DNA of 64,000 nt from a virus (IMGVR_UViG_3300042381_000885); one strand, 5' to 3'; positions 19,295-63,609 are shown, numbered from the stretch's first letter. Numbers and translations are program-made. The notes: generated by a model from the letters alone, not told the origin.

Positions 19295-19381
19295 AGTCAG
19301 GTGGCGGAATTGGAGAGACGCAACTCTATTAAGGAGTGGAGATGAAATAAACTCATACAGGTTCGAATCCTGTCCTGACTA
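19295..19381 (+). tRNA. tRNA-Leu-type (class II), anticodon probably TAA but arm is non-canonical; no encoded CCA
   Basis: AGTCAGG-TG-GCGGAATTGGAGAGACGC, long variable arm, ACAGG-TTCGAAT-CCTGT, CCTGACT-A. Confidence 0.65.
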
Positions 19382-20337: not shown

Positions 20338-20428
20338 GGTATTGTAGCTCAGTGGGGGATTTATCTTCCTTGGTAGAGCAGGAGTCTCGAAAGTCTCTGT
20401 GTCGCAGGTTCGAACCCCGCCGATACCA
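20338..20428 (+). tRNA. atypical tRNA, loop CT-CGA-AA, with a hairpin inserted in the D-loop
   Basis: GGTATTG/CGATACC+A acceptor, GCTC/GAGC D-stem, GCAGG-TTCGAAC-CCCGC T-arm, weak anticodon stem. Confidence 0.6.
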
Positions 20429-41517: not shown

Positions 41518-41915
41518 TCACATTACGGTGATATTTAAAACTTCATCTATTTTCCTTTTATCTTTCAATCGCGTCCCTATCGTCGTTGTAACACCACAAT
41601 TCAATATTGACTCCACTAAGTGGTCTTTCAAGCCGTAATCGGAAATAGTTGTTGTTACCCCACAATTTAATACTGACACCACCCATTCTTTTATAAGTGG
41701 TTCATATTCACTTCTCACCATACAAAATAATTGGAAATAATCGTAAAAAAAATCCCATCTCCAACATAATGTACCATTTTTATGAAATTCCAAATACCAA
41801 CATTTTTTTTCTCTGTCAATAAACCAAAGGGAATCTGCATATAAAATCAATTCCACATGAGATAGGCATCGGTTAATTTATTAAAAATTAGTTGTTTTAG
41901 TTTATCTGTAATCAT
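41518..41915 (-). pseudogene. frameshifted MITDK-family gene carrying a short CRISPR-like array (locus C)
   Basis: ATG at 41915 aligns with 51301, but GATAGGCATC here versus GATAGGTCATC there is a 1-nt deletion near 41866. Repeats at 41582-41617 and 41648-41683. Confidence 0.7.
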
Positions 41916-42208
41916 CTGTATCTAAATTGTTCAAACCATTTATTGAATGGTAAAGGTCTTGTTAACTCTACTTCTATACAATCCATAGTGTATTGATTGT
42001 ACTCGTCAAATAATTTTTTATCTTGTTCTTGTTGCCATTTAGTACCTAATTCAAATTGTCTTTTAAGTAATTCCATTTGAGGTTCTTTATCAAATGTTTT
42101 AGCTTTTTCTAATGGATATACATAAGTTAATTCAGCATATCTTTGTTTCGCTTCTTCAATCGTTTCTTTTTCCACACTATTTATTTTTAAATTGTTCATT
42201 TTTCCCAA
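41912..42208 (-). CDS. KETxEEA...WQQ...KWFEQF family protein
   Basis: Family motifs. Confidence 0.65.
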   Translation of the reverse strand: MGKMNNLKINSVEKETIEEAKQRYAELTYVYPLEKAKTFDKEPQMELLKRQFELGTKWQQEQDKKLFDEYNQYTMDCIEVELTRPLPFNKWFEQFRYR

Positions 42209-42361
42209 ACTAATGTGCTTTCCTTATTATAAAGAGAAAAAGTCCAAAAAATATCTTTAGTGGAACAAGATAATAATTTATAACCTTGTCGAATTTTAGA
42301 TTTGATATGTTCTTCTAAATCATAATTACCATCGTGTTTATAAACTTCCGTTTTAATCATA

Positions 42362-42595
42362 CTATTTCTTTTTAAATTTTTCAAACCATTCTTTTACATC
42401 AAAGCTATTACCTAATTTTAAAGATTGTAATTTCAACGTATGTTTATTGAAAGCGTTTAATAAAACAAAAACTTCTCCCTCACTATAACTATTTTGTTGT
42501 TGCCATTTAGCACCAAATTCTACTGCTAACTTGTATGAATGAGGTAATGGAGAATCTAAATATCTTTCCTTTGCTTCTTCAAGTGTTTCTTTCAT
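42362..42595 (-). CDS. KETLEEA family protein
   Basis: MKETLEEAKE...GAKWQQQNSYSE...KEWFEKFKKK. Confidence 0.65.
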   Translation of the reverse strand: MKETLEEAKERYLDSPLPHSYKLAVEFGAKWQQQNSYSEGEVFVLLNAFNKHTLKLQSLKLGNSFDVKEWFEKFKKK

Positions 42596-42827
42596 CTTAT
42601 TTCTTTTTAAATTGTTAATATTCCAAATAATAAAAAAACAAAAAAAACAATTAATCCACCATATACAACAATAGATAACCCCCATTCTTTTATAAATTTT
42701 TCCATCTTATTTCTTTTTTATTTTTTCAAACCAAAAATCCACGCCATAGTTTATCAATAGTCCAGCAATTGTTAAAAACCCAATCATAAAAAAGAATATT
42801 ACTATAACTTCTAATATTTTTCCCATC

Positions 42828-43580
42828 TTATTTCTTTTTAAATTGTTCAAGCACTCTTTCTTTTATAAATTCTAGGTAGTCCCAATTATCATCTTTAAAT
42901 TCAGACTTTATTTCAGCAATAAATAAATCTATTCCATCAGTATAACTTCTTTCTTGTTGTATCAATCCTAAATCACAATAAGTTGAATCCTCCCCTTCTT
43001 TTGGATATTCTCTTTCAGCAGCTTCTTCAAGTGTTTCTTGTTTTGGTTCTTCTTTCAAATCCATAAGGTTAAAAAACTCTTGGCTTACAATTTTTGAAAA
43101 ATCCGTAGGTTCTTCTTTTGGAATGTAGTATTGACGACTTTCAAATGTTTCTTTATAATGTAATTTATCAAAATCAAAATCTTCTTTTGGAATGATGATT
43201 TTGTATATCCAAGTGTGATATATGGTTTTATATCTTTCAGTTTTAACAAACTCACAACTTGGATTTTTTACAAACCACTCTAAAAATTCATCGTCAATAG
43301 CTTGTACACTATCTTTGATTAATTCTTGGTCTGTTGTTAGAATGATTTTTTTACAATCATTTCCAATAGGTCTATTATCGGCAATAATTATTTGCTTAAT
43401 AAAATCATCATAATACCAATCTCCTTCTTTAATTTCTTCATCATTAGTGATGTAGATGTTTCTTCCCTCAACAATTGAATTTATACTTTTACTCAATTGT
43501 ATTTTTGGACTGATAAATAATTCTGAATCAAAATGTAACCTACTTGGGTTATCTGTTGGTATTACGTGTATGTTTTTCAT
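42828..43580 (-). CDS. MKNIH family protein fused to a KQETLEEAAE module
   Basis: Conserved blocks PTD.PSRL, NIYIT.DEEIKE, KKIILTTDQ, EFLEWFVKNPSCE, YKIIIPKE. Confidence 0.75.
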   Translation of the reverse strand: MKNIHVIPTDNPSRLHFDSELFISPKIQLSKSINSIVEGRNIYITNDEEIKEGDWYYDDFIKQIIIADNRPIGNDCKKIILTTDQELIKDSVQAIDDEFLEWFVKNPSCEFVKTERYKTIYHTWIYKIIIPKEDFDFDKLHYKETFESRQYYIPKEEPTDFSKIVSQEFFNLMDLKEEPKQETLEEAAEREYPKEGEDSTYCDLGLIQQERSYTDGIDLFIAEIKSEFKDDNWDYLEFIKERVLEQFKKK

Positions 43581-44157
43581 AATCCTATTTGTTTATTCCT
43601 ATTGAAATTAATGTAATAATCGCTACTATATAAGCCAAGATGAAGGCTAAACATTCTTGATATTCCATAACTTATTTGTTTTTAAAGGTTGTTAATTTTT
43701 TTAATTTTATTGTATAATTTCAAGTGTAACCCTTTAGGTTTAAATTCACTTAATTCAGCAAACCTAATGTGAGATTCATCTACTTTATTCCAACGACGTA
43801 GTATTACAAATCTTATAAAATCTTTTATCATATCTTATTTGTTTTTAAATTGTTTGCATTTAACACCAATCATCCATCCAAATACTATTGGAGCAAATCT
43901 TCCTAATGGTATATATAAATATTCACTTGTATTCCAAATACAACTACCTATAAATTGCAATGGTGTTTCTTCTTTCCAAAAAATCATATTAATAAAAATA
44001 AATTTTAATATTTTCTTTTCCTACCATATTTACTAAATCTATTACTTTATTATAATTGCATCCTCTAATAAGGTCTTTACCATCTGATATCCTTACTACA
44101 ACATATAAGTTACCTAACTTATTACGTTGTTCCATAAATTCTTCATACGTCATAATC

Positions 44158-44430
44158 TTATTTCTTTTTAAATTGTTCAAACCATTCTTTAAATAATTCA
44201 TCTTTTCTATCAATAGAATCTATATCATTTATACCATAGCTTATTACAAATCCATTTTTAAATGCTATTTCTAAATCATCTTCACTATAACTTCTTTCTT
44301 GTTCCCATTTAGCACCTGCTGTAAACCCGCAAACAAAATCAAATCTATTAGGTTCTAAAATACCTTTTCTAAATTCTTTAAAAGATTCTTCTCCTGCTAT
44401 AAAAGCAGCTTCTTCAAGTGTTTCTTTCAT
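44158..44430 (-). CDS. KETLEEA family protein
   Basis: MKETLEEAA...WEQERSYSE...KEWFEQFKKK. Confidence 0.65.
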   Translation of the reverse strand: MKETLEEAAFIAGEESFKEFRKGILEPNRFDFVCGFTAGAKWEQERSYSEDDLEIAFKNGFVISYGINDIDSIDRKDELFKEWFEQFKKK

Positions 44431-44431
44431 C

Positions 44432-44977
44432 TTATTTCTTTTTATTTCGTTCAAACCATTCTTTAATTTGCAAAGGAACTATTCCTTGCTTGTTTTGTCT
44501 TTGAATTTCAACTGCAAAATGTGTTAATTTATTCAATACTTCTTCCTCACTATAACTTCTTTCTTGTTGCCATTCAGCACCATTTATAAATGAATGATAA
44601 TCAAAAAAAGCATTAGTAGTACTTAAATTATATCTTTCAGCAGCTTCTTTAAGTGTTTCTATTCCTTTACAAGTTTTTGTCAAATAACAAAGACATTCAT
44701 CTGTACAAGTGCAATTTTCTTCAAGTGTTTCTTTTTTAGGTTCTCCCCAAATAACTTCTCCATCAATACTACTTTGAAGTAATACTTGTTCTTTAAATGG
44801 CTCTATACTCCTTATAATTTCTTTAATTTTAACCCAATCTTTTTGAGCTAATTCAGTTCCTTTCCAATCTTCAAGGATAGCTATTACTTCTTCAGTAACA
44901 TAAATAGCGTGATTTAAACCTAAATCCTGCACTAATTCTGCCGCTTTTTGACTTGTTGTCATTTTTTTTGTGTCCAT
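44432..44977 (-). CDS. mosaic KETLEE family protein
   Basis: Contains the SSIDGEVIWG block shared with 45330, then ETLKEAAE...WQQERSYSEEEV. Confidence 0.65.
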   Translation of the reverse strand: MDTKKMTTSQKAAELVQDLGLNHAIYVTEEVIAILEDWKGTELAQKDWVKIKEIIRSIEPFKEQVLLQSSIDGEVIWGEPKKETLEENCTCTDECLCYLTKTCKGIETLKEAAERYNLSTTNAFFDYHSFINGAEWQQERSYSEEEVLNKLTHFAVEIQRQNKQGIVPLQIKEWFERNKKK

Positions 44978-45190
44978 TTTTTTTATTTTTAACGTTGTTT
45001 TAAAAATTCTTCTATTGCCTCTTCGGTATTGTCAAAAACATACCATACTTCTTGCCCGCAATCTCTCGCCCAGTCAATAAATTCCTCTAATAATTCTTTT
45101 GTTTCCATTTTTTTTATTTTAGTTTACTAATTACTCTTGTTTTATATACGAAGTCGTTTTTTGCCCTCGTTAATTATAATTGCCGTACTT

Positions 45191-45269
45191 CTGGCAACAA
45201 TCGTTTGTACTAATCGGCAGAATATACGCAACCGCATAGCCGATTAGTACAAGCGACAAACGTTACCAG
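45191..45269 (-). mobile_element. solitary attC-like site
   Basis: Minus strand reads CTGGTAAC-gtttg-18-bp stem (one mismatch)-20-nt loop-stem-tt-GTTGCCAG. Confidence 0.55.
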
Positions 45270-45329
45270 GAATACTACGATAGCATATCTCTAACAGCAA
45301 TCATTCCTCTATAGTGATGGTCTTGAGCT

Positions 45330-45836
45330 TCATTCATTGCAATTTTCATCTTCTGGTTTATCGCCCCAAATAACTTCTCCATCAATACTGCTTTGTAAAA
45401 GCACTTCTTCTTTTGGAATGATTATTTTGTAAAATATCTTATTAGATAATTTGTAATATACATCGTCTTTGTATATTCCGTGTTCAGCTTTATCAACCTT
45501 TACCTCCTCACAACTTGCGTTCTTAACAAACCATTCTAAAAACTCATCATCAATAGCTTGTACACCATCTAAGTCTTGGTCTGTTGTTAGGATTATTTTT
45601 TTAGCTTTTTGAATGTTATCTGCTAATATATAAGATACTTGCCAAATATCTTTCCCATCAGTAACCCAATCATTAATGTCTAAATCTGAATCAGAAGTGA
45701 TGTAGATGTTTTGATTTATACACCATCTTCCAAACTTTCTATCTTCAATGGGGTTGTATGTTATTACAAGAGGATTATCTATATGTTTATATAACCTACT
45801 TGGTTTTGGTGTTGGTATTACGTGTATGTTTTTCAT
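45330..45836 (-). CDS. MKNIH family protein
   Basis: Family blocks. Confidence 0.75.
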   Translation of the reverse strand: MKNIHVIPTPKPSRLYKHIDNPLVITYNPIEDRKFGRWCINQNIYITSDSDLDINDWVTDGKDIWQVSYILADNIQKAKKIILTTDQDLDGVQAIDDEFLEWFVKNASCEEVKVDKAEHGIYKDDVYYKLSNKIFYKIIIPKEEVLLQSSIDGEVIWGDKPEDENCNE

Positions 45837-46107
45837 CTTGTATCTCTTTGTATTTCTGAATAATTAATAAACAACTATCTCCAACCTTCCATCTTCCTTC
45901 GTATTCAAATGGAATTTCAATCTCTTTCGTAACCTTGTCAGTTTGCACCCAAAGTTTAGGAAGTTCTGCAATTCTACCGCTATATCCTCTTTTAGTAGCT
46001 GAAACTTTACCATCAATTATTTCTTGACCTATATGTGTATACTTTTGTTCGGTACAAGAAGTAAGTAGTAGTAGTAATGATAATATTAATATGTGTACGT
46101 TTTTCAT
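45796..46107 (-). CDS. putative lipoprotein
   Basis: MKNVHILILSLLLLLTSC lipobox. Confidence 0.6.
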   Translation of the reverse strand: MKNVHILILSLLLLLTSCTEQKYTHIGQEIIDGKVSATKRGYSGRIAELPKLWVQTDKVTKEIEIPFEYEGRWKVGDSCLLIIQKYKEIQDEKHTRNTNTKTK

Positions 46108-46649
46108 AATGATTTTTTTAAAGGTTTAGGTTCTTCTTTTGGAATGTAGTATTGACGACTTTCAAATGTTTCTTTATAATGTAATTCATCAAAATCAAAA
46201 TCTTCTTGTGGAGTGATGATTTTGTAAAAATTAGTTCCTTGAAGTAATTTACGTTTTTCAACCTCAACCTCCTCACAACTTGGATTCTTAACAAACCATT
46301 CTAAAAACTCATCAGGTATAGCTTGTACACCATCAGAAATTAGAGCAGTATCTGTTGTTAGGATGATTTTTTTACACCAACCACCATTAGGGTAAGTGAT
46401 AAGAGGTTCTTTTCTAACAATTTCTTCTGTAACTTTTATGGGTTTAAAAACATTTCTTCTACCCATTTCCCCAACCGCATTGATTACATAACAATTACAA
46501 TCTGTAATTTCTTCATCAGAAGTGATGTAGATGTTTTGTTTTTCCTTTTGATGTATTACGTCTTTAATATATAAACATAATTCTCCTGTTTCTTGTCCAA
46601 TAAATAACCTACTTGGTTTATCTGTTCCTATAATGTGTATGTTTTTCAT
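46104..46649 (-). CDS. MKNIH family protein
   Basis: Family blocks. Confidence 0.75.
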   Translation of the reverse strand: MKNIHIIGTDKPSRLFIGQETGELCLYIKDVIHQKEKQNIYITSDEEITDCNCYVINAVGEMGRRNVFKPIKVTEEIVRKEPLITYPNGGWCKKIILTTDTALISDGVQAIPDEFLEWFVKNPSCEEVEVEKRKLLQGTNFYKIITPQEDFDFDELHYKETFESRQYYIPKEEPKPLKKSL

Positions 46650-48202
46650 AATGATTTTTTTAAAGGTTTAGGTTCTTCTTTTGGAATGATGATTTTGTAT
46701 TTGTAAGTTAAAATCATATCATTCAAAGATTTGGTTGAAATAAAACTTGGTGGGTCTTGTAAAGCATTAAATCTTATTTTTGGGTTTTTTGAAGAAATAA
46801 GCTCGTCTTCTATTTTTCTTACTTCAACCTCCTCACAGCTTGGATTCTTAACAAACCATTCTAAAAACTCATCATCAATATCTTGTACACCATCTTTGAT
46901 TAAGTCTTGGTCTGTTGTTAGTGTGATTTTGAAAACCCCAGAATTTTCAATATTAGCTAATTCAATATCTCCTTTATTTTGAATTTTAACACAATGAATT
47001 ATAGCACCTTGTGTATAAATCACCCAATCCCCTTCTTTAATTTCTACATCAGAAGTGATGTAGATGTTTTGATTCTGCCAAGTTTTATTATTTAACATCA
47101 AATCAGGGAGCCAAAGCAAAGTACCCTCTTTAAAATTATTTGGAGCATTTTCTTCACTTCCATTTTCATCTATAAAAATATTAGATGTTCTTTTTAATAA
47201 CCTACTTGGTTTATCTGTTCCTATAATGTGTATGTTTTTCATAATGATTTTTTTTAAAGGTTTAGGTTTTTCTTTTGGAATGATGATTTTATATACATAG
47301 GAATCAGTTTTTGAATGAAAACAATCATCAATATAATTACCAAATTCATCGATATGTTGTGATTTTACTTCAACCTCCTCACAACTTGGATTCTTAACAA
47401 ACCATTCTAAAAACTCATTTGGAATAGGTTGTACACCATCTTTGATTAGGTCTACATCTGTTGTTAAGATGATTTTTTTACAGTTTTCATTCCAAACTTT
47501 GATATGATTGTTTATATTTTTAGCAATTTTATTTGTTCTTAAATCTATAATCCAACTACCATCTGCTTCTTTAATTTCTTCATCATTAGTGATTGAGATG
47601 TTTTGGTTTTTAAAATCATCGTTTCTACTTTGAATTGAAGTTTGTAACATTCCAAATACAAAGTTTCCATTATCTCCTGAATATAACCTACTTATTTTAT
47701 CTGTTGGTATTACGTGTATGTTTTTCATAACTATATGTTTCTTTTTAGGTTCACTTAGAATGATGATTTTGTAATTAATTCTATGTGGAACAACTATTGG
47801 TTTATTGCCTTGATGTTGTACTAAAGGTTTATCTTGTATAATTATCAATTTTTCATTGACCTCAACCTCCTCACAACTTGGATTATTAACAAACCATTCT
47901 AAGAACTCATCATCAATAGCTTGTACACCGATTAAGTCTTGGTCCGTGGTTAGGATGATTTTCTTTAACCAACTACTTAAATTAACATTCTTTTGTGAAA
48001 TTATATCTTCACATTTATCAATGGTATTTTTTAAGGTGTTTAAATACCAATCATCTTCTTTAATTTCTTCATCAGAAGTGATGTAGATGTGTTGAAACTT
48101 AACATCATTACCTTTAATATTTGGTAATAAAAAATAAAATCCTTCTTTTGTTAGATATAACCTACTTGGTTTATCTGTTCCTATAATGTGTATGTTTTTC
48201 AT
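46646..48202 (-). CDS. three MKNIH units fused in frame
   Basis: Internal MKNIHVIPT and MKNIHIIGT restarts. Reverse TATCTTTG promoter at 48222-48229. Confidence 0.75.
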   Translation of the reverse strand: MKNIHIIGTDKPSRLYLTKEGFYFLLPNIKGNDVKFQHIYITSDEEIKEDDWYLNTLKNTIDKCEDIISQKNVNLSSWLKKIILTTDQDLIGVQAIDDEFLEWFVNNPSCEEVEVNEKLIIIQDKPLVQHQGNKPIVVPHRINYKIIILSEPKKKHIVMKNIHVIPTDKISRLYSGDNGNFVFGMLQTSIQSRNDDFKNQNISITNDEEIKEADGSWIIDLRTNKIAKNINNHIKVWNENCKKIILTTDVDLIKDGVQPIPNEFLEWFVKNPSCEEVEVKSQHIDEFGNYIDDCFHSKTDSYVYKIIIPKEKPKPLKKIIMKNIHIIGTDKPSRLLKRTSNIFIDENGSEENAPNNFKEGTLLWLPDLMLNNKTWQNQNIYITSDVEIKEGDWVIYTQGAIIHCVKIQNKGDIELANIENSGVFKITLTTDQDLIKDGVQDIDDEFLEWFVKNPSCEEVEVRKIEDELISSKNPKIRFNALQDPPSFISTKSLNDMILTYKYKIIIPKEEPKPLKKSL

Positions 48203-48277
48203 AGTGTCTTTATTTAATGTGCAAAGATAAGTATAAATTATTAAACCACAAAGAAAAAGAATGATATATTTATTAAT

Positions 48278-48595
48278 ATGAACTTACAAGAGAATATACG
48301 TAGAATAAAATCAATGATGGGAGTTGTTATTGTTGAATCTGAGATTGAGATGCCGGATTATGCTGTATTTGAAATAATGATACCGATGGCTTATTTACCA
48401 CTTAAATATTATTTTCAGGCAACACCAATACATCATTTGGAATCGGATAGGATATATGTAAATAAAGGTGCTGGTGGAAAATCAATCTCAACTAAAAACA
48501 TTAAAGTATTAAAAACCTTTAAATACGATGAAAAAGATGAGATGGAATCTTATCTTAATAATTTAAGGGATAATCAATATAGAAAAGAAAATTAA
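48278..48595 (+). CDS. MNLQENI-tag protein
   Basis: N-terminal tag; TATTTAT at 48267. Confidence 0.7.
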   Translation: MNLQENIRRIKSMMGVVIVESEIEMPDYAVFEIMIPMAYLPLKYYFQATPIHHLESDRIYVNKGAGGKSISTKNIKVLKTFKYDEKDEMESYLNNLRDNQYRKEN

Positions 48596-48596
48596 T

Positions 48597-49097
48597 ATGA
48601 ACTTACAAGAAAACATACATAGAATACAGGAAGTGATGGGGATTATCTCTGAGGTTAAATCGTCATATACTGTAAAACAAATAGAGAAGGGTTTAAACAA
48701 GTCTGCAAAGGACAATGATATAACAATAAACACAAGTGTTGATAATGTTATAAATAACATAGATAAATTTGAATTTCAGATTGGTTCGGTAGAGGCGTTT
48801 TTAGATGATGAAAATAGTTTTGCAGCGGACTCACTAGTTGAAAAACTAATATCTTATGTCAAAGATAAGAATTTAAATATTGATATATCCAAATTGATTG
48901 AGTATAACAATTATAGAAGAGAGTACGACAAAAATGATGATAGAGTGTTTGAACTTTTATATAACACACATCCTGATGATGACTATACAGAGGAGATAGA
49001 AAGATTATATAAAAGGAATGATGAGTTATATCCTTATTTTGATTTACTAAAACAGGAAACCTTAAAGGTTAAACAAGAAATACTTAATTTAGAATGA
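48597..49097 (+). CDS. MNLQENI-tag protein
   Basis: N-terminal tag. Confidence 0.7.
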   Translation: MNLQENIHRIQEVMGIISEVKSSYTVKQIEKGLNKSAKDNDITINTSVDNVINNIDKFEFQIGSVEAFLDDENSFAADSLVEKLISYVKDKNLNIDISKLIEYNNYRREYDKNDDRVFELLYNTHPDDDYTEEIERLYKRNDELYPYFDLLKQETLKVKQEILNLE

Positions 49098-49867
49098 ACC
49101 TACAAGAAAATATACAAAGAATAAGAGAGATGATGATTGCCGAAGAAATGGTTCAATCGGACGCTTGGAAATCAATTAAAAAAACATTGGACATCCTCAA
49201 AGATAAGAAAAAAGTTTTATTCTTAAGTTGTTCCAATAGATATAATTGGGATGATAAAAACATAGACATTCCAAAATCAAAAATGATTGCAATGTATCTT
49301 AACGATGAATTAAAAGATAATTCAGTGTTGATTGATGTCTCTGAACTTAATATTGTTCCTTGTGAAGGAAATGTATCAAGGAAAGATGGAAATAGTTGTG
49401 GAGTGTTAAAGGCAATGCTCAAAGATAAGAAAAAAAATCCATCAGGAGACCATAGATGTTGGGCGAGTATCAATAATCCAAAGGATGAACTATGGAAGAT
49501 AAGTAAAGAATTATTTGAATCTGATGCGGTTATATTCTTTAGTTCGGTAAGGTGGGGACAAACAAATATGTTTTATCAAAACTTAATTGAGAGATTAACT
49601 TGGATTGAGAATAGACATTATACATTAGGGGAATCAAATCTTGTTAAAGATATTGAGAGCGGATTTATCTGTGTTGGACAGAATTGGAATGGTGAGAATG
49701 TTACAGAAACACAAATGAAAGTTCATGAGTTCTATGGGTTCAAACCAAATGATGATTTATATTGGAATTGGCAATACACCAAAGATATAAATGATGAGAC
49801 TCAAAAATCATATAAGGATTCACACAAGAAGTTTATCAAAGATACAAAATTACCGGAATTTAAATAA
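49094..49867 (+). CDS. flavodoxin-fold NAD(P)H-dependent FMN reductase / Fe-S flavoprotein-like, with MNLQENI tag
   Basis: LFLSCS, IDVSELNIVPCEG...CG...RCW, ESDAVIFFSSVRWG...LIERL. Confidence 0.7.
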   Translation: MNLQENIQRIREMMIAEEMVQSDAWKSIKKTLDILKDKKKVLFLSCSNRYNWDDKNIDIPKSKMIAMYLNDELKDNSVLIDVSELNIVPCEGNVSRKDGNSCGVLKAMLKDKKKNPSGDHRCWASINNPKDELWKISKELFESDAVIFFSSVRWGQTNMFYQNLIERLTWIENRHYTLGESNLVKDIESGFICVGQNWNGENVTETQMKVHEFYGFKPNDDLYWNWQYTKDINDETQKSYKDSHKKFIKDTKLPEFK

Positions 49868-49921
49868 TATGAACTTACAAGAAAACATAGATAGAATACA
49901 TCAGATGATGAGCGGGGGTTT

Positions 49922-50281
49922 TTAATTATTAAAATAATTATTATTTAGAAATGAATAATCCTCAACCTGAATGTCAAAGTGTTTATTAAACCAATTCATC
50001 ACCAATGTATTTGGTTTATCATCGAGTCCTTCACCCACGGTAGATTCACCAAACATATCTTCAAGTTTATTTTGAAATGAGACCAAGATTAATAAAACAT
50101 TAGTTACACCATATTTGTGAGTATTAGCTCTAACAACAAAAGTGGGTCCTTTATCATTAGAGTGTTCATAAACTTCAAAAGGATATAATTCATCACTTGA
50201 TTCCAAAACCCTCCAATCGATACTATCCAAGTATTTGGAAACCACATCTTTTAATCTGTTTTCTGTTATAATATACTTCAT
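49922..50281 (-). CDS. MKYIITE-tag small-domain protein
   Basis: Ends NWFNKHFDIQV. Confidence 0.7.
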   Translation of the reverse strand: MKYIITENRLKDVVSKYLDSIDWRVLESSDELYPFEVYEHSNDKGPTFVVRANTHKYGVTNVLLILVSFQNKLEDMFGESTVGEGLDDKPNTLVMNWFNKHFDIQVEDYSFLNNNYFNN

Positions 50282-50587
50282 TTACTTAACCTTTTTTACC
50301 TCGACACCGAATTTATATTCAAACCATCCTTTAACCAAGTGATTAATTTCTTTATCGGTTTTATTGGATATGTCCATAAGACTCTTTCTAAATGTATTAT
50401 CAAACCATAATCTACCATCTTCTCCGTCATACTCCATTTCAATTTCAGCGCTTTCACCATCGTAATCAATCAATTCTTCAATGATAATGAATTGGTCACA
50501 ACCATATGTGTTTTTTGTAGATAACCAATTTTCCAAATAATTGACCATAAATTCATTTAATCTATTTTCTGTGATAATATACTTCAT
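50282..50587 (-). CDS. MKYIITE-tag small-domain protein
   Basis: Ends GWFEYKFGVEV. Confidence 0.7.
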   Translation of the reverse strand: MKYIITENRLNEFMVNYLENWLSTKNTYGCDQFIIIEELIDYDGESAEIEMEYDGEDGRLWFDNTFRKSLMDISNKTDKEINHLVKGWFEYKFGVEVKKVK

Positions 50588-50629
50588 AGTTTATAAATAG
50601 TCCATGAGGGAAAAAAAGGGGTTGGGGGT

Positions 50630-51301
50630 TTAACTACTCGGACTTAATGAGGAATTATTTAAGACTGACCCTACTGTATGAGCATACGCTCCATCTCCTG
50701 ATTCTATTGTTATTACCTCACCATTTAGGACTGACTCCACCAAGCGGGTGTTCGGCATGGAACTAAAATAAGTTGTTACCCCACCATTTAGGACTGACTC
50801 CACCGCTTGATTTTGCATCCAAACTTCTCCTACGGTTGTTGTTACCCCACCATTTAGGACTGACTCCACCCATGACAATAGTTCATGACACATAAGGGAT
50901 GTTGTTGTTACCCCACCATTTAGGACTGACTCCACCCGTTTGATACAACCATTTTCGTTCCTCCATGTTGTTGTTACCCCACCATTTAGGACTGACTCCA
51001 CCCCAACCCTTTTTTGCAAATTCAATAACGGTGTTGTTGTTACCCCACCATTTAGGACTGACTCCACCCATTCGGTGATAAGTGGTTCATATTCATCTCT
51101 TTCCATACAAAATAATTGGAAAAAATTGGAAAAAAATCCCCATCTCCAATATAATCTGCCGGACTTTTGAAATTCCAAATACCAATATTTGTTTTCTCTA
51201 TCTATGAACCAAAAGGAATCTTCATATGAAATCAATTCCACATGAGATAGGTCATCGGTTAATTTATTAAAAATAAATTGTTTTAGTTTATCTGTAATCA
51301 T
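50630..51301 (-). CDS. MITDK-family protein with translated repeat-spacer tail (locus A)
   Basis: About 78-aa conserved domain, then VESVLNGGVTTT plus about 10 variable aa, six times. Confidence 0.8.
   Translation of the reverse strand: MITDKLKQFIFNKLTDDLSHVELISYEDSFWFIDRENKYWYLEFQKSGRLYWRWGFFSNFFQLFCMERDEYEPLITEWVESVLNGGVTTTPLLNLQKRVGVESVLNGGVTTTWRNENGCIKRVESVLNGGVTTTSLMCHELLSWVESVLNGGVTTTVGEVWMQNQAVESVLNGGVTTYFSSMPNTRLVESVLNGEVITIESGDGAYAHTVGSVLNNSSLSPSS
50706..51068. CRISPR. CRISPR-like array inside an ORF, no cas genes: 36-nt repeat GTTGTTGTTACCCCACCATTTAGGACTGACTCCACC
   Basis: Repeats at 50706, 50769, 50835, 50901, 50967 and 51033; spacers 27, 30, 30, 30, 30 nt and mutually unrelated. 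Geometry is certain; CRISPR function is unproven. Confidence 0.65.
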
Positions 51302-51759
51302 ATTGTTGTTCCATTATTTAATATTTCCTCCACACATTTGAGACCACGTATATGATTACTAATGGTTGCCGTGACACCTTTCTTTAATATATAACTCACC
51401 AAAAATCCGTCTTTATTTGCTCTATACGATGTTTTCACTCCGCCATTTAGGACTTCTTCGATACCTACATGATTACCAATATTGATTTCAGTTGTTATTA
51501 ACTCATGGTTTAATACTTTCTCTACCCATTCTAATATGATTGGCTCGAATTGGTTTCTCTCCATCGTGAATAATTCAAAAAATTCAATAAAGAATTGCCA
51601 TCTCCAATATAGTTCGCCTGAAGATTTAAATTCCAAATACCAATATTTTTTCTCTCGGTTAATAAACCAAAAGGAATCACGGTATGATATTATCTCAACA
51701 TGGGATAAATCTTCACTCAATTTATCAAAAATTGTTCTTTTAAATTTATCTGTAATCAT
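51298..51759 (-). CDS. MITDK-family protein with degenerate repeat tail (locus E)
   Basis: VEKVLNHELITT / IEEVLNGGVKTS / VSYILKKGVTAT / VEEILNNG at 21-22 aa period. Confidence 0.75.
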   Translation of the reverse strand: MITDKFKRTIFDKLSEDLSHVEIISYRDSFWFINREKKYWYLEFKSSGELYWRWQFFIEFFELFTMERNQFEPIILEWVEKVLNHELITTEINIGNHVGIEEVLNGGVKTSYRANKDGFLVSYILKKGVTATISNHIRGLKCVEEILNNGTTI

Positions 51760-51824
51760 CTGTATCTAAATTTTCATTCGGTTTATAAGGGGTGGGGATA
51801 TAACTCCTCGGGATAAATAAGAGA

Positions 51825-52349
51825 TTATAATCCATTTAATACTGACTCCACCTTTATTGCAACGGATAACTTAGATGGTACTGTTGTTGTCACCCCACAA
51901 TTTAATGCTGACTCTACCAATAGTTTTTGGTGGAATTTCATCAACAACGTTGTTGTCACCCCACAATTTAATGCTGACTCTACCCATTTCAGTTTTTTGA
52001 TGGTGCCTATTTGAGTTGTTGTGACCCCGCAATTTAATGCTGACTCTACCGTCCATCCGGCGATTGAATCCTTGTTTACTGTTGTTGTAACCCCGCAATT
52101 TAATGCTGACTCTACCCATTCTTTTATAAGTGGTTCATATTCATTTCGTTCCATTGTGAATGGAGAGAAAAAATTAGTAAAGAATTGCCATCTCCAATAT
52201 AATTTACCTGATTTTTCTAATTCCAAATACCAATACTTCTTTTCTCGGTTAATAAACCAAAGGGAGTCATTGTAGAAAATCAATTCCACATGAGATAGGT
52301 CATCGGTTAATTTATCAAAAATTGTTCTTTTAAATTTATCTGTAATCAT
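51825..52349 (-). CDS. MITDK-family protein with translated repeat-spacer tail (locus B)
   Basis: VESALNCGVTTT plus 10 variable aa, four times. Confidence 0.8.
   Translation of the reverse strand: MITDKFKRTIFDKLTDDLSHVELIFYNDSLWFINREKKYWYLELEKSGKLYWRWQFFTNFFSPFTMERNEYEPLIKEWVESALNCGVTTTVNKDSIAGWTVESALNCGVTTTQIGTIKKLKWVESALNCGVTTTLLMKFHQKLLVESALNCGVTTTVPSKLSVAIKVESVLNGL
51832..52116. CRISPR. CRISPR-like array inside an ORF: 36-nt repeat GTTGTTGTNACCCCRCAATTTAATGCTGACTCTACC
   Basis: Repeats at 51883, 51949, 52015 and 52081 plus a partial copy ending at 51852; all spacers 30 nt. Confidence 0.65.
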
Positions 52350-52860
52350 CTGTGTCTAAATTTTCATTCGGTTTATAAGGGGTGGGAGCAACAAAAGACA
52401 TATCATAGTGAGCAAGTTTTTCCACCATATTATTTAACTCTTCTCTACTATACATCGGAGCAAACGATGGTCGAGAGTGAAAAGGAATATTATCTCTATT
52501 CTCCCATTCATCCAATCGTTTAGAAATGGTGGGGATAAAACCTTTAAGATATTCATAATCTTTCCACTTAGTATAGTCGGACTCGGAGACGATATACATA
52601 AGGTCACCATAGTTCTCAATCATAGAAAGGTCGGGGTTATTAGAATAGACATCAACAATACCATCCTCACCACCATACTTATGACAAAGTCGCTGAAGAG
52701 TATGAATGTTATGAATACAATTGTCTCTCCAATTGTGACCATATGAACGAACATTACAGATATACAAATAACCATCCTTGTAGTTATGTATTGTATTATC
52801 AATCTTGTCCTGTAATTCAATAAGTTCCCCAATACTATATTTTGATAAATCTATTTCCAT
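52336..52860 (-). CDS. hypothetical protein
   Basis: ATG at 52860 below a reverse TATCTTTG at 52865-52872. Confidence 0.65.
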   Translation of the reverse strand: MEIDLSKYSIGELIELQDKIDNTIHNYKDGYLYICNVRSYGHNWRDNCIHNIHTLQRLCHKYGGEDGIVDVYSNNPDLSMIENYGDLMYIVSESDYTKWKDYEYLKGFIPTISKRLDEWENRDNIPFHSRPSFAPMYSREELNNMVEKLAHYDMSFVAPTPYKPNENLDTDDYR

Positions 52861-52904
52861 GAGGCAAAGATATAAAGAATAATTTATAATACAAAGAAAT
52901 ACTA

Positions 52905-53624
52905 TTAGATTAATTTCCATTCATTGTCCTTAGTAAGAACAAGAGCGGAGAAGTTCTCAACCCAATCACCGGAGTTATAATATTTGATTCCGTTTATTTC
53001 TTTAATGCCCGGGATATGAATATGACCACAGATGACACCATCACAATTAAGAGTACTTGCATAATCACAGGCATTAATCTCAAAGTCATTTATAAATGAC
53101 AGAGCTTTCTTAAAGTTTTCTTTAATTACTTTAGAGATACTATAGTATGGTTTTCCGGTGAGTTCTCTATACTTGTTGTACCAAGTATTAAGACGAAGAG
53201 CGAAGTCATATCCAATGGAACCAATCTGTGTAAGAAATTTATATTTGGTTGTGATATCAATTTTATCACCGTGAAAGACAAGATACTTTTTATCTTCAAC
53301 ACTATAGATATATTCATCCATAAACTTAATGTTCCCAAGTCCGGAAGAATATAGGTCTTTTACATCATTATCGTGGTTCCCTCTAATATAGATAATCTCG
53401 GTATTGCGGGACATATCCAATAGTTTAATGATTACCTTCATATGTTTATTCTTCCATTTACTCCCACGATTAATGGCATCAATATCAACAATATCTCCGT
53501 TAAGGATAAGAAGGTCAGTTTCAATAGACTCAAGGAACTCAAGAATCTTTTTAGGTTTACTATCGACCATACCTAAATGTAAGTCGGATAGTACAACGCA
53601 TTTATATCCAATAGTTGTGGTCAT
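52905..53624 (-). CDS. calcineurin-like metallophosphoesterase (LpxH/UDP-2,3-diacylglucosamine hydrolase-like)
   Basis: SDLHLG, NGDIVD, RGNHD, FHGD, GHIH, NSGDWV. Confidence 0.85.
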   Translation of the reverse strand: MTTTIGYKCVVLSDLHLGMVDSKPKKILEFLESIETDLLILNGDIVDIDAINRGSKWKNKHMKVIIKLLDMSRNTEIIYIRGNHDNDVKDLYSSGLGNIKFMDEYIYSVEDKKYLVFHGDKIDITTKYKFLTQIGSIGYDFALRLNTWYNKYRELTGKPYYSISKVIKENFKKALSFINDFEINACDYASTLNCDGVICGHIHIPGIKEINGIKYYNSGDWVENFSALVLTKDNEWKLI

Positions 53625-54306
53625 CTTTAAAGAAGTCGGGGTTATGTTTATTTTTATTAGAGAGATACGCCATTTTAATCATATACCATAATCCTTTCTT
53701 TTTAAATCGTCTATCGGTTGTATATACTTTCTCATTAGACACGCCAAACCGGAGGGGATTAACTTTCATACTAAGATGAAAATCTTCAGCAAACTTATCA
53801 TCATTATTAAAACCACCAAGAAGATTAAATTCAGACATTTTAAATAACATAAATCCACCAATAGCGCAAGGGGATGTCTTAATTGTTAAATCCCTAAAGA
53901 ACTCAAACACCGGGAAGACAAATGAATAAACTCCTTCAACTCTAAACTTAGTGGTAAGAAGATATAGGTCTTTACTTTTAATGGTGTTAAATGTGTTAGA
54001 TATTATGAATGGGGACATTAAAAAGATATCAGCATCCAAGAATAAAACATAAGGAGTTTTAACTAATTCAGCTCCGTTATTCCTTGCAACACTCGGTAGT
54101 CCACCATCAATGATTTCAATCCTTAATCTTGGGTATTTACCTGATAGTATAATGTCCCGGGTATTATCATCAGAACAATCAGCAATAATCACACGAGTTT
54201 TATAAATACCAAATTGTTTATTAATTAATGTAAGTGTTTTGTCTATAATCTCACTCTCATTCTTAGAGGGGATTACAATAGTTAATTTGTTTTTTATCAT
54301 ATCCAT
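53602..54306 (-). CDS. glycosyltransferase family 2
   Basis: IVIPSKNE, IIAD.S.D.T, ARNNGA, LFLDAD, ED. Confidence 0.88.
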   Translation of the reverse strand: MDMIKNKLTIVIPSKNESEIIDKTLTLINKQFGIYKTRVIIADCSDDNTRDIILSGKYPRLRIEIIDGGLPSVARNNGAELVKTPYVLFLDADIFLMSPFIISNTFNTIKSKDLYLLTTKFRVEGVYSFVFPVFEFFRDLTIKTSPCAIGGFMLFKMSEFNLLGGFNNDDKFAEDFHLSMKVNPLRFGVSNEKVYTTDRRFKKKGLWYMIKMAYLSNKNKHNPDFFKDDHNYWI

Positions 54307-54390
54307 AAATACAAAGAAATCATTAAGAGTAAATTTATGCTCAAAGTACCATTAAAAGGTACTAATGGCAAAGATTTACTCACTTAATAA

Positions 54391-54939
54391 TCATATTTCA
54401 CCGTTAGCGGGGTAGTTTAATTTGTAATGGTTTTCTACCAAAGGTAAATCAACGATAAAACAACCGAAGGTTGTTGTTGACTTTAATTTGTGAAGTTCCT
54501 CCGGTGTAACATTTCCATAACGGTCATGTCTTGTTGTTGTTACGTTTAATCTGTGATGTTCCTCCACCTTGTCCCAGTGAACAAAGCAATTCGGCACGAT
54601 TGTTGTTACGTTTAATCTGTGATGTTCCTCCACCAAGTCAATCAATTCTCCTCTTTCTTCGACCGTTGTTGTTACCTTAAATCTGTGATGCCCCTCCACC
54701 CATATTTTTGTTAGGTCTTGTACTTCCTGATAATTTAATCCAAAAAAGGTTTCTAATAATGACCAAATTTTAGAATAAGAGATATAAACAACCCCATTTA
54801 TTTTACTGTAATAATTAAGAACTTTCCCGTCTTTCATAAAGAATATATGCTCTTTCCAATCATCCGTTTCATAATCAACAATCCCGGAATATTCTTTATT
54901 TAGGTAGTTAATGATTCTATGCTTTAGTTTATCTGTCAT
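54391..54939 (-). CDS. small-domain protein with translated repeat-spacer tail (locus D)
   Basis: VEEHHRLNVTTT-type repeats plus 9-10 variable aa. Confidence 0.8.
   Translation of the reverse strand: MTDKLKHRIINYLNKEYSGIVDYETDDWKEHIFFMKDGKVLNYYSKINGVVYISYSKIWSLLETFFGLNYQEVQDLTKIWVEGHHRFKVTTTVEERGELIDLVEEHHRLNVTTIVPNCFVHWDKVEEHHRLNVTTTRHDRYGNVTPEELHKLKSTTTFGCFIVDLPLVENHYKLNYPANGEI
54415..54700. CRISPR. CRISPR-like array inside an ORF: 36-nt repeat GTTGTTGTTACGTTTAATCTGTGATGTTCCTCCACC
   Basis: Repeats at 54533, 54599 and 54665, degenerate copy at 54470, partial copy ending at 54439. Confidence 0.6.
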
Positions 54940-54951
54940 AAGTGGGTGAGA

Positions 54952-55254
54952 TTAAATAATGGATTCAATCTCAAGATGATATGTTTTAATCAAATATCGT
55001 TTCATGGAATGATTAAATTCCGAAAGAGTAACATTAAAGTAACTAAAATGATTATCAAACACTTCACCATCATAATACCAATCATATCTATCATTATCAG
55101 TATGGCCAATGACTATATCTTTATTACCATTACCGTAATCCATCATAAGACCACTCCAAGGAATATCGCCTAATATCTTACTACCGATATATGTATCATT
55201 AAACTTACTATCCCAATAAGGTTTCATCATTTTATCAATAGAGACGTCATCCAT
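54952..55254 (-). CDS. small-domain family protein
   Basis: ATG at 55254 below a reverse TATCTTTG at 55272-55279. Confidence 0.6.
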   Translation of the reverse strand: MDDVSIDKMMKPYWDSKFNDTYIGSKILGDIPWSGLMMDYGNGNKDIVIGHTDNDRYDWYYDGEVFDNHFSYFNVTLSEFNHSMKRYLIKTYHLEIESII

Positions 55255-55516
55255 AGTATTATATTTGTCGGCAAAGATATAAAAAAGAAATGAATAAACA
55301 AAAAAAGGGGTAGGGGATTGACGCCCCGGACCATATGATAGATTATAATAAGTGTTCTTCATAATATTACCAAAATGTGTAATATATGATAAAAGACATA
55401 TATTCCTCATTATATGATAAAAACCATATAAGTCCTGAGACTTATAAACCCACAATATAAGTCCGGAACCTTATTATCGACGAGGAGGTTTTCTATTGAC
55501 CATATATTTATCAATA

Positions 55517-56872
55517 ATGATAAGATTAGCAGAACAATCCAATGAGCCATCACTAAGAGTAATTTCCAAATTATTCAAGTTGTTAGATGTGGAGAAGAAA
55601 AAGAATAGAACAAGAGCATCTTTATTAGAAGCCATCAAGAATTTTGCGCCATATATGGGAATACCTAAAGGATTCGAGCAATATATTTTGGAGTTGTATG
55701 TATTAAACTTTAGAAAAGATGGGGACTACTCAAACTTAACGAAGGAAAACTTTGTTGACCCAAGAAAACAAAGTGGGAAGGTTATATCAAATCCAAAGGC
55801 GAAACTATACACAATAGCTCAATTACCATTCAGAGGTTCAAATTTAGAGGGATATTGGTCCGAAGACCCAAAAGGAACTCCATACTATAAAGTTGTATCA
55901 TACGGGTGGTACCCTATTTACATATTCAAAGATGATAAATGGTATGAGGTAACAAAAAATTATTCTTCATCCACAAGTAGACAAATAAGTAATGCCAATC
56001 CTGTGGGATGGGGTGATGATACATTCGATAGTGTATATACATTAACTCCTGATGAGATGAAACTATTGGAGCGGGGATATAGTCATGATGATATAATGAA
56101 GAATAAGGTAAAGAAATTAAAAACAATCGAACCTGATTTAACAAAGAGAAAGAAGACAGCCAAGACATACAATTATTGGAATCAAGACCCGGAACAAATG
56201 GTTCCAAACACAAACATAAAGTTCAAAGTAAGGAATATAGAGGTGGGTGATGATAACGCCATTGTTAATATAGATGTGTATGATGTATTTAAAAGAGAAA
56301 ACAACACACAGGTATATACACCACAGAACTACTTAAAGGGGGAAATCCCTAATCTTAATCCAACCAAGGTGGAAGACGCAATCAAAATCAAAATGAGGGG
56401 TGAATTAAAAGATTATATCGGTAAGAGATTTAGATGGACACCACAAGACCCAAAAGGGGCGAAGATAGAGTTTAAATTCAATCATTTAAAACAACCGGGT
56501 TTACAAGAGAATATACATAGAATCCAATCGATGATGGGGGTTATTAACGAAAGTAAATTAAATAACATTGCCAAGAAATGGTTAAACGATAAGTATGGTG
56601 ATTTAATACCATTTGAAACTAAAAAACATCGCAATTTTATTTATTATAGAAAAGGTGATGAAGTAGTTTTTGACTACAATAAAAAAAATGGGGAGGTTTA
56701 TGTTAGTTATGATGAGATTTGGTCATATTTACAATCAATGTTTGGTATGGAATGGAAACAAATTCGGGACCTAACAAAGGAATGGATAGAGGAACATTAT
56801 AATTTAAGGGTAACGGAAACAAACTATGGATTTTATACCGTTTTAATTAGGTGGAGGAACATTACAAATTAA
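55517..56872 (+). CDS. multi-module protein ending in an LQENIHRI tag plus a locus-D-type domain
   Basis: C-terminal ~100 aa align with 54939. Repeat-like unit at 56785-56820. Confidence 0.7.
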   Translation: MIRLAEQSNEPSLRVISKLFKLLDVEKKKNRTRASLLEAIKNFAPYMGIPKGFEQYILELYVLNFRKDGDYSNLTKENFVDPRKQSGKVISNPKAKLYTIAQLPFRGSNLEGYWSEDPKGTPYYKVVSYGWYPIYIFKDDKWYEVTKNYSSSTSRQISNANPVGWGDDTFDSVYTLTPDEMKLLERGYSHDDIMKNKVKKLKTIEPDLTKRKKTAKTYNYWNQDPEQMVPNTNIKFKVRNIEVGDDNAIVNIDVYDVFKRENNTQVYTPQNYLKGEIPNLNPTKVEDAIKIKMRGELKDYIGKRFRWTPQDPKGAKIEFKFNHLKQPGLQENIHRIQSMMGVINESKLNNIAKKWLNDKYGDLIPFETKKHRNFIYYRKGDEVVFDYNKKNGEVYVSYDEIWSYLQSMFGMEWKQIRDLTKEWIEEHYNLRVTETNYGFYTVLIRWRNITN

Positions 56873-56878
56873 GATAAT

Positions 56879-57442
56879 ATGAACTTACAAGAGAACATAC
56901 ATAGGATACACGAGATAATGGGCGGGGTTATTAACGAACAGTCCGAATTAAAAAAAGATGCGCTAAAATCCATGTTAAAACAATCAGGGATGGCGGTTAC
57001 ATCCAAACTAATGGGCGGGATTGATAATTTAATAAAGGTTCTTTATGATGGTGATATTATGGGGTTTAGTGAGGATACTCACACACCACTTGTTTATATG
57101 TCGACAGACAAAATGGCGTTATATATACATGACGCGTTGGTTGAAAAACTTGGACTAAACAATAATTCACGACCACTACATCGTGATGAAAAAGAATTAG
57201 GGGATTTTAGATTCGGGTCAAAAGACAATATGATTTACAAGTTTACAGCAAGATTATATCCGACAAACCTTCATGACCAAACATATTATAAAGTTGTGGG
57301 GTTAAGTGGTGATTCAGGATTCGGTTATGGATTTATTAGTAAAAAAAACATATTGGGTTTAAGAAACAGACAACAAATCTTCAAGCAGATTATAGACAAA
57401 TATAATTTGGAACCATACATGAAATTAAAAACATTCTATTAA
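56879..57442 (+). CDS. MNLQENI-tag protein
   Basis: N-terminal tag; terminator at 57449-57475. Confidence 0.7.
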   Translation: MNLQENIHRIHEIMGGVINEQSELKKDALKSMLKQSGMAVTSKLMGGIDNLIKVLYDGDIMGFSEDTHTPLVYMSTDKMALYIHDALVEKLGLNNNSRPLHRDEKELGDFRFGSKDNMIYKFTARLYPTNLHDQTYYKVVGLSGDSGFGYGFISKKNILGLRNRQQIFKQIIDKYNLEPYMKLKTFY

Positions 57443-62988: not shown

Positions 62989-63609
62989 ATGGAGTATTGT
63001 GAATTACCGAAAGATTCTTTATTAACTAAATTACCTAATTTCAATTTTATTAGGGATGATGAGAAAAAGGACAGGATGAATGTTGTAATTGCCGGTGGAG
63101 CCGTCCGGGATAGTTTATTTGGGGATGAGTATAGTGATATAGACATCTTTGGATTAACTAAAGAGGATTTGGATTTATTTGTTAAGTTGAATCTATCTAA
63201 GGGTAATGGTTATAAATTGGTTTATTTCAATGAGAACTTGAGGACTTATAGAAAGGGTAAGATTAAGGTTCAGATTATATATAGGGAATATGATAAATTA
63301 ACGGATATTATTGATTCATTTGATTTTACGGTATGTCAGTTTATGTTTGATGGGGAGAAGGTTATATGTAACCCCTCCGGTTTATTGGATGTTTACCATA
63401 AGAGGATTATTATAAATCATCTTGAACCATTATTTGTCTTTGATTCTTTGAGAAGAGTTCAGAAATATATACAGAAAGGATATACCATCTGTAATGGTGG
63501 GATAAAGGACATATTGGATAAGTGTCGGGAATTGACTCAGGAACAATATGATGAGAATGTGGAATTCTATCCTAACACTAATGAATATCGAATAATTCGA
63601 TTTGATTAA
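62989..63609 (+). CDS. second nucleotidyltransferase (CCA/poly(A) polymerase head-like)
   Basis: IAGGAVRD, DIDIF, IDSFDFTVCQ. Promoter TTTG-N20-TATCTTTG at 62943-62974. Confidence 0.75.
   Translation: MEYCELPKDSLLTKLPNFNFIRDDEKKDRMNVVIAGGAVRDSLFGDEYSDIDIFGLTKEDLDLFVKLNLSKGNGYKLVYFNENLRTYRKGKIKVQIIYREYDKLTDIIDSFDFTVCQFMFDGEKVICNPSGLLDVYHKRIIINHLEPLFVFDSLRRVQKYIQKGYTICNGGIKDILDKCRELTQEQYDENVEFYPNTNEYRIIRFD

Follow-up and report, generated by a model that had tools for sequence, protein, structure and literature searches.

CRISPR-like repeat-spacer arrays form in-frame 3′ ends of a family of small genes in giant lake phages

A family of small genes in an uncultured giant lake phage ends in arrays with the geometry of CRISPR loci, i.e., 36-nt repeats alternating with mostly 30-nt spacers, and these arrays lie in frame with the genes and are under coding constraint. 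CRISPR arrays are generally taken to be noncoding. The genes are carried by a 64,000-nt stretch of the virus IMGVR_UViG_3300042381_000885 (here called the window; positions are counted from its first letter), proteins of which are also encoded on contigs from lake water as long as 314,729 bp; the phage is present in sequencing runs of the same lake dating from 2020 to 2024. Five minus-strand open reading frames (ORFs), A, E, B, C, and D, encode a conserved domain of about 80 residues followed by units of 22 codons. At the DNA level each unit is a 36-nt repeat plus a usually 30-nt spacer, in frame, and in A, B, C, and D the first repeat is formed by the domain's own final 12 codons. We consider it probable that CRISPR-type arrays have been built into the 3′ ends of this gene family and are read as protein, with new units supplied by a Cas1-Cas2-type integrase acting in trans.

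A scan of the whole window for 36-mers recurring with a period of 58 to 75 nt detected loci A, B, C, and D alone. The first-pass annotation of this DNA had counted six array loci. Five of them are found on the minus strand where it placed them, but E is decayed and the sixth, F, lacks an array, so that the six resolve into four arrays, one fossil array, and one array-less paralogue:

50630-51301, minus strand: gene A, 223 aa, domain plus array of seven repeats and six spacers
51033-51068, 50967-51002, 50901-50936, 50835-50870, 50769-50804, 50706-50741, and 50640-50675 (decayed), minus strand: repeats of A
51003-51032 (A1), 50937-50966 (A2), 50871-50900 (A3), 50805-50834 (A4), 50742-50768 (A5), and 50676-50705 (A6), minus strand: spacers of A, of 30, 30, 30, 30, 27, and 30 nt
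51298-51759, minus strand: gene E, 153 aa, domain with a fossil array (approximately 51298-51526) of four repeats, all decayed
51825-52349, minus strand: gene B, 174 aa, domain plus array of five repeats and four 30-nt spacers, first repeat at 52081-52116
52051-52080 (B1), 51985-52014 (B2), 51919-51948 (B3), and 51853-51882 (B4), minus strand: spacers of B
41518-41914, minus strand: gene C, domain plus three repeats and two spacers (C1, 41618-41647; C2, 41552-41581)
54391-54939, minus strand: gene D, 182 aa, domain plus array of five repeats and four spacers, first repeat at 54665-54700
54635-54664 (D1), 54569-54598 (D2), 54506-54532 (D3), and 54440-54469 (D4), minus strand: spacers of D
56603-56872, plus strand: locus F, domain at the C terminus of a 458-aa ORF (55496-56872), with one repeat-like end (WIEEHYNLRVTET) and a 16-residue tail, no array

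The best repeats within a locus match closely even at synonymous positions, as had been observed in the first pass. In A, repeats one to four are identical, repeat five matches them through its first 33 nt, and the last two are decayed; in B the four full repeats vary at two synonymous sites only, and the stop codon shortens the last repeat. The repeats of E have diverged at synonymous sites and retain the peptide pattern V-E-x-V-L-N-x-G-V-T-T, and the stop codon of this gene overlaps the start codon of A (ATGA). In C, a 1-nt deletion near position 41881 (gatg-cctatc; L074 and L075, whose orthologues are intact, read gatgacctatc) shifts the frame of the first ~17 codons and leaves an ORF at 41518-41856 with a GTG start; C is thus a pseudogene or an assembly error. 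The D domain is a distant paralogue with 31% identity to that of A, and the 16-residue tail of F is common to another array-less relative, P0059. The ~40 nt located 5′ of genes E and B (51760-51824 and 52350-52400, minus strand) are almost identical (ccccaccccttataaaccgaatgaaaatttaga.acag-ATG), and the duplicated unit therefore spans the 5′ region in addition to the coding sequence.

Coding and DNA-level constraint on the arrays

For a view of the whole family, 59 related metagenome loci were fetched via the domain alone, and repeats were then traced by similarity with the reading frame ignored. In the window and these loci taken together, 97 arrays were recognized; of their 299 spacings, 278 measure exactly 66 nt, nine 65 nt, and five 69 nt, with a few others; periods that keep the frame account for 96% of all. 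The repeat and spacer lengths proposed in the first pass are therefore those of the family at large.

The spacers are open in one frame only. Across the 19 window spacers the coding frame has no stop in 167 codons, compared to 6.1% in the other five frames (8 to 13 stops each; P, ~3 × 10^-5), in line with the chance of ~10^-5 that the first-pass annotation had attached to some 19 stop-free spacers. Family-wide, none of 947 spacer codons is a stop in the coding frame versus 5.4% elsewhere (3.6 to 8.0% per frame; P, ~10^-23). A spacer-final TA would form a TAG stop with the first G of the following repeat, and no spacer ends in TA (0 of 232; ~20 expected). The encoded peptides also differ from those of the other frames, with more G, D, N, E, Q, and Y and fewer L, I, F, and C (chi-square, 159; 19 degrees of freedom), a shift toward hydrophilic residues. 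Old arrays are kept as conserved protein: the tail MDCGTGMY-Q-DLILGN is nearly identical across several diverged members, and the tail of locus E is likewise conserved. Overall, the arrays are under coding constraint and a strong translation filter acts on the spacers, as the first pass had proposed. A stop-free frame together with protein-level conservation of decayed arrays sets these sequences apart from chance ORFs of the "translated CRISPRs" type.

The repeat is in addition constrained as DNA, beyond what the protein alone accounts for. It is offset by one base from the codons, starting at the G of an invariant Trp codon and ending in ...ACAAC; because its last two bases are AC, any first spacer base completes a Thr codon. 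Active arrays were defined as those with at least 34 of 36 bases in common between the first and second repeats, and the 31 distinct repeats compared have the consensus GGTGGAAGAGGTATTAAATCATAAGGTATCCACAAC. Averaged over the eight repeat codons tested, the most frequent third-codon base has a share of 0.87, versus 0.67 at conserved domain residues of the same genes (Mann-Whitney P, 0.006); the mean for the repeat is 0.82 if the last Thr codon, whose third base belongs to the spacer, is included. The repeat-terminal ACA codon is 96% conserved at its synonymous site. One lineage, represented by L043 and L060, has identical repeats with 29-nt spacers between them; the frame is broken and the ORF ends 79 nt past the first repeat, while the array continues. 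The persistence of these out-of-frame arrays indicates that the repeat-spacer structure is independent of translation. Both loci (L043:287-2848 and L060:268-2470) are tandem clusters of seven to eight family paralogues, each with a terminal mini-array that has from zero to three spacers; roughly half of the spacers are 29 nt long and out of frame.

Kinship, turnover, and origin of the units

About 2.4 kb past the window end (L011:13576-15280) lies a 400-aa gene that encodes a Cas12f1-like/TnpB domain, and after it come a structured region and a CRISPR array. The 36-nt repeat of that array is GTTGGGAATCATCACAATTTGAAAGGTAGTTACAAC, with periods of 66, 65, 66, and 65 nt and spacers of 30, 29, 30, and 29 nt. 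Among the in-gene repeats that of locus D is closest to it (~69% identical; z score, 5.9; 0 of 2,000 shuffles reach the alignment score), and that of locus A gave a z score of 4.1, with one of 2,000 shuffles reaching its score. By sequence similarity, then, the in-gene repeats appear to be related to a genuine CRISPR repeat of the same phage. The Rfam CRISPR-DR families gave no match at the gathering score over the whole window, nor at E values of up to 10 over positions 50500-52400.

Closely related genomes differ by whole units. L008 and L009 lack precisely one 66-bp unit, formed by spacer A1 and the domain-proximal repeat, and are otherwise 100% identical to the window through 5.6 kb. L074 and L075, with flanks 99.0 to 99.7% identical, have an intact C locus and one additional domain-proximal unit. 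P0007 (domain 98% identical) has A5, A6, and the trailer in common with A together with five other proximal spacers; the D variants P0058 (138 aa), P0057 (160 aa), and P0005 (182 aa) are nested, with the two proximal units differing; and P0014, a relative of B, has the distal spacer B4 alone in common with it. Counted over 33 spacer-sharing array pairs, which are not independent of each other, the unshared spacers are proximal in 152 cases, internal in 24, and distal in 58. Identity to the first repeat drops with distance, the last repeat being the most decayed (mean, 25.7 of 36 bases). Whole units are thus gained and lost mostly beside the domain while the far end decays. A 95-nt contig from one lake-water run (X20), in which B3 and the distal repeat (51883-51947) are joined to 30 letters unlike B4, represents a variant of array B from the same lake population.

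The spacers bear no relation to one another, as had been noted from the window: the 232 distinct 30-nt spacers average 7.98 identities per 30 nt in pairwise comparison versus 7.79 for shuffled sequence, and the family contains 237 unrelated spacer clusters. Their G+C content is 40.5%, compared to 32% for the loci. When all spacers were compared to the window and every fetched locus, matches were found in orthologous arrays only, with none common to the TnpB-linked array, and exact scans of IMG/VR with B3, A3, A4, and B2 returned no match.

Candidate protospacers were obtained when contigs of four lake-water runs were compared with positions 50560-52400. Some contigs match the window solely across a spacer, at 50868-50899 (A3, run X4) and 51918-51948 (B3, run X20). 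In another X20 contig the match ends at 50901, the domain-proximal edge of A3, and in others its start falls at A4 (50805) or at 51983, 2 nt ahead of B2. All these contigs run on for 35 to >255 letters of unrelated, nonrepeat sequence, and the flanks had no match in the window, the fetched loci, plasmids, or phages. The source of A3 differs between X4 and X20 although the phage is at least 99% identical in both, a weak argument that the source is not this phage. At the two reconstructed upstream flanks, too few to judge by, the acquisition motif of Flavobacterium columnare (TTTA, five bases upstream) was not visible.

The domain, its tails, and the neighborhood

An AlphaFold2 model of the first 91 residues predicts a well-folded domain (predicted local distance difference test [pLDDT], 88.8; predicted template modeling score, 0.78). 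The last predicted helix, residues 68 to 84, contains the motif WVESVLN, so the start of the first repeat would belong to the fold; the array-encoded tail has no confident structure (pLDDT, 36 to 53). Searched with the domain, Pfam and PHROGs yielded no family. The Protein Data Bank yielded no significant fold match, and the ESM Atlas returned only clusters of viral hypothetical proteins (template modeling [TM] value, ~0.76); the resemblance to PqqD-type leader-binding domains reached a TM value of 0.45, below the usual threshold. The GenBank phage collection gave no DNA or protein match, array A giving only chance matches at E values of up to 10. Among 1.84 billion cluster representatives (50% identity), a profile search recovered 489 relatives at E values of up to 0.001, with lengths of up to 406 aa among the 150 matches listed.

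Several other features of the window were recorded. A 206-aa protein encoded at 62989-63609 (plus strand) has a precomputed Pfam match to PF26128 (Gad2), an anti-Gabija family, which suggests that the region is a counter-defense island. Two multicopy gene families have starts kept at the nucleotide level, one on the plus strand (48266-49922 and 56483-56932) beginning MNLQENIHRI..MMG and one on the minus strand (43233-48235) beginning MKNIHVIPTDNPS...; in locus F, a tag of the MNLQENI type stands inside the 458-aa ORF directly before the domain. A glycosyltransferase gene is located between B and D. DNA methyltransferase genes, for a D12-class N6-adenine enzyme (PF02086) and an N6/N4 methylase (PF01555), lie at 692-1543 and 13270-14121 (both plus strand). 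A full-length GOLLD RNA (Rfam RF02032; 284.7 bits) is found at 21096-21503 (plus strand) beside tRNA genes at 19295-19381 and 20338-20428, a position typical of phage-borne GOLLD.

Proposed mechanism, rival explanations, and significance

What fits best is that CRISPR-type arrays came to lie in frame at the end of this gene family, or arose there. A Cas1-Cas2-type spacer integrase would write new units in trans, copying 30-bp pieces from DNA present inside the infected cell. The likeliest such enzyme would be the adaptation module of a Bacteroidota host, II-C-like, by analogy with F. columnare, in which a type VI-B array without cas1/2 of its own is filled in trans by the type II-C Cas1-Cas2 and takes many self spacers (Hoikkala et al., 2021, PMC8092290). 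Selection would then retain inserts that keep the frame, contain no stop, and encode a fairly hydrophilic peptide; recombination between identical repeats would delete, swap, and move units among strains and paralogues; and old units would lose repeat identity and stay on as ordinary protein sequence. Our best guess, with the chances about evenly balanced, is that the tails diversify the C terminus of an accessory, possibly counter-defense, protein. The transcript could additionally be a source of guides or decoys, used by the TnpB-type nuclease of the phage or by a host Cas13b.

Several observations weigh against this account. The integrase that the first-pass annotation had invoked did not come to light: cas1, cas2, and other cas genes are absent from the 20 largest of the 37 window ORFs of at least 170 aa (some 240 kb of phage, and the host, lie outside this search), and no Cas1, Cas2, or TnpB domain was found in four partial related IMG/VR records of 54 to 145 kb. 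The spacer sources that it had called for have their candidates in the same lake samples; these come, however, from a single contig comparison and might even sit in an unseen part of this phage. Exact scans of 185,579 species genomes with the spacer cores A1 and B1 gave no match, nor did a scan of the JGI metagenomes with A1, and no shared protospacer-adjacent motif can be derived from the few flanks. The best repeat abuts the domain on average, as proposed, but not in D, where the first repeat is unlike the second and third at five bases, and in L074 the added unit starts from a hybrid repeat, part C type and part A type. A proximal repeat unlike its neighbor is not what would be expected of fresh duplication by Cas1-Cas2, so these two cases point to recombination and make the polarity a bias, not a rule. 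A single spacer also occurs in five arrays with different neighbors on both sides. Clearly, both gene conversion and recombination operate among the paralogous arrays as well, and the domain-proximal gain among orthologues looked for in the first pass takes the form of whole-unit turnover with a proximal bias, mixed with internal differences.

Those same cases are what would be expected if there were no CRISPR-type integrase at all and the units were recombination-driven cassettes, shuffled, duplicated, and deleted via their 36-bp repeats among paralogues or coinfecting phages, the spacers being ancient diverged protein segments. The hybrid repeat of L074, the divergent first repeat of D in genomes otherwise identical, the spacer recurring in changing company, and the internal differences all agree with this. 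Shuffling cannot, however, create 237 unrelated spacer clusters at shuffled-level identity, and the exact 30-nt (sometimes 29-nt) size, the G+C excess of 8 points, and the spacer-only contig matches in the same lakes point to capture of outside DNA, which makes a purely recombinational origin quite improbable. Gene conversion, named in the first pass among the causes that could undo its proposal, does operate, but the spacers are unalignable and the turnover of whole units is biased toward the domain.

A stronger contender, although still unlikely, is that the arrays serve mainly as guide RNA or decoy arrays, whether for the TnpB-type nuclease of the phage or for Cas13b or Cas9 of a host, and that translation is incidental. 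The frame would stay open because the genes are packed and overlapping, such that a premature stop uncouples downstream genes, and toxic tails are selected against. This would agree with the kinship of the repeats, in sense orientation, to the TnpB-linked CRISPR repeat, with the overlap of the E stop and A start codons, with the out-of-frame mini-arrays of L043 and L060, and with the lack of a predicted fold in the tails; in addition, huge phages carry cas1/2-less arrays, some of them host targeting (PMC7162821), and repeat mimics act as RNA anti-CRISPRs (PMC10651486). It is not expected of a guide array, on the other hand, that decayed copies keep their peptide pattern and are conserved as protein after repeat identity has gone, nor that the first repeat forms part of a predicted folded domain, and the 5′ GGTG breaks the GTTG...CAAC end pairing seen in the phage's own CRISPR repeat.

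Two further explanations are very improbable. If the family encoded precursors resembling those of ribosomally synthesized and posttranslationally modified peptides (RiPPs), the 12-residue motif would serve for recognition or cleavage, and the variable segments of 10 residues would be released or modified. The alternation of a conserved, Thr-rich-ended motif with a variable core, the weak resemblance in shape to PqqD-type domains, and the glycosyltransferase gene between B and D would suit such a precursor. The cores have no common residue pattern, however; whole-unit capture, synonymous-site conservation, and out-of-frame arrays would be unexpected; the TM value falls below threshold; and no maturation enzyme is recognizable nearby. 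Even less credible is an annotation artifact in which ordinary noncoding CRISPR arrays, open by chance, have been appended to an upstream ORF. False proteins are known to stem from the translation of CRISPR arrays, and pipelines filter them out (PMC7673337, PMC10392669), but here every other frame has 3.6 to 8% stops while the coding frame has none, and the arrays were found via domain and repeat similarity, not ORF calling. Moreover, 93% of periods are exactly 66 nt, compared to the alternating 30- and 29-nt spacers of the phage's noncoding array, no spacer ends in TA, and the first repeat lies inside the predicted folded domain.

Two known types of variable gene do not fit. An ordinary tandem-repeat protein does not agree with spacer identity at the shuffled level, with identical repeats in out-of-frame arrays, or with repeat synonymous sites conserved above the domain level. 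For a diversity-generating retroelement, the variable parts lack template-like similarity, and no reverse transcriptase is present among the window ORFs scanned.

Of the systems already described, the type VI-B array of F. columnare is similar to the in-gene arrays in its 36-bp repeat and ~30-bp spacers, the lack of adaptation genes of its own, the concentration of change at the leader end, and transcription from the leader into the array. The II-C and VI-B repeats of that bacterium are both 36 bp long with a common leader-distal end, GTTGT (PMC8092290), and the leader-distal ...ACAAC of the in-gene repeat is its reverse complement. Compared to type VI-B, as known from the phage's own VI-B-like repeat and the description in PMC8092290 only, the lengths and the 3′ ACAAC agree while the 5′ end is GGTG and not GTTG. 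Unlike the F. columnare array, those studied here are phage borne, with a coding domain as the "leader" and its last 12 codons as the first repeat; they are in frame, stop free, and conserved as protein when old; and no cas13b, cas9, cas1, or cas2 was seen in the window. Huge phages carry CRISPR arrays without Cas1, Cas2, or Cas4 and often without an effector, arrays for which reliance on host Cas proteins was suggested (Al-Shayeb et al., 2020, PMC7162821). Those arrays are likewise compact (median, six repeats), belong to phages of >200 kb, and lack adaptation genes, some of their spacers matching bacteria of the same sample, but they are described as noncoding, with no in-frame fusion or coding constraint in that paper. 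The TnpB-linked array of the phage itself has the same 36 + 29/30 geometry and a 3′ AAGGTA...ACAAC block in common with the family consensus, all in the same genome; it differs in being noncoding, in standing beside an effector gene and a structured scaffold, in having 29-nt spacers in half of the cases, and in sharing no spacer with the in-gene arrays.

Viral CRISPR-type repeats without cas genes are also known, in the form of mini-CRISPR arrays borne by viruses (Medvedeva et al., 2019, PMC6858448) and of RNA anti-CRISPRs or solitary repeat units (Camara-Wilpert et al., 2023, PMC10651486), and the one- to three-spacer arrays of L043 and L060 are mini-array-like. Those elements are small noncoding RNAs directed against rival viruses or Cas proteins, whereas the in-gene units are protein codons. 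Spurious CRISPR-translated proteins (Rubio et al., 2020, PMC7673337) share with this family the spaced identical peptide repeats that correspond to CRISPR repeats, but they are chance ORFs, while here the frame is kept far beyond chance and the first repeat falls in a predicted folded domain. Repeat-protein mining pipelines deliberately discard translated-CRISPR ORFs (PMC10392669). None of the papers that we found presents such arrays as genuine coding sequence; where their translation is mentioned, it is treated as an annotation error (PMC7673337, PMC10392669).

A family of at least 489 cluster representatives (50% identity) thus keeps CRISPR-type arrays in frame. Even in the sober reading, of a guide or decoy array forced to remain translatable, the family would exhibit a dual-coding constraint for which no description was found in the CRISPR field. 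It is conceivable, although we hold it to be somewhat short of an even chance, that giant lake phages use or have domesticated CRISPR-type capture to turn 30-bp pieces of outside DNA into 10-residue peptide cassettes, in effect a templated, unit-wise generator of C-terminal sequence. If capture does write peptide modules in this way, Cas1-Cas2-type integration would be acting on phage genes and would constitute a new route of protein diversification, providing new protein sequence from arbitrary DNA in a compact natural design by which DNA is recorded into an expressed protein. Old cassettes fixed as ordinary protein would then represent a route for the de novo birth of protein sequence.

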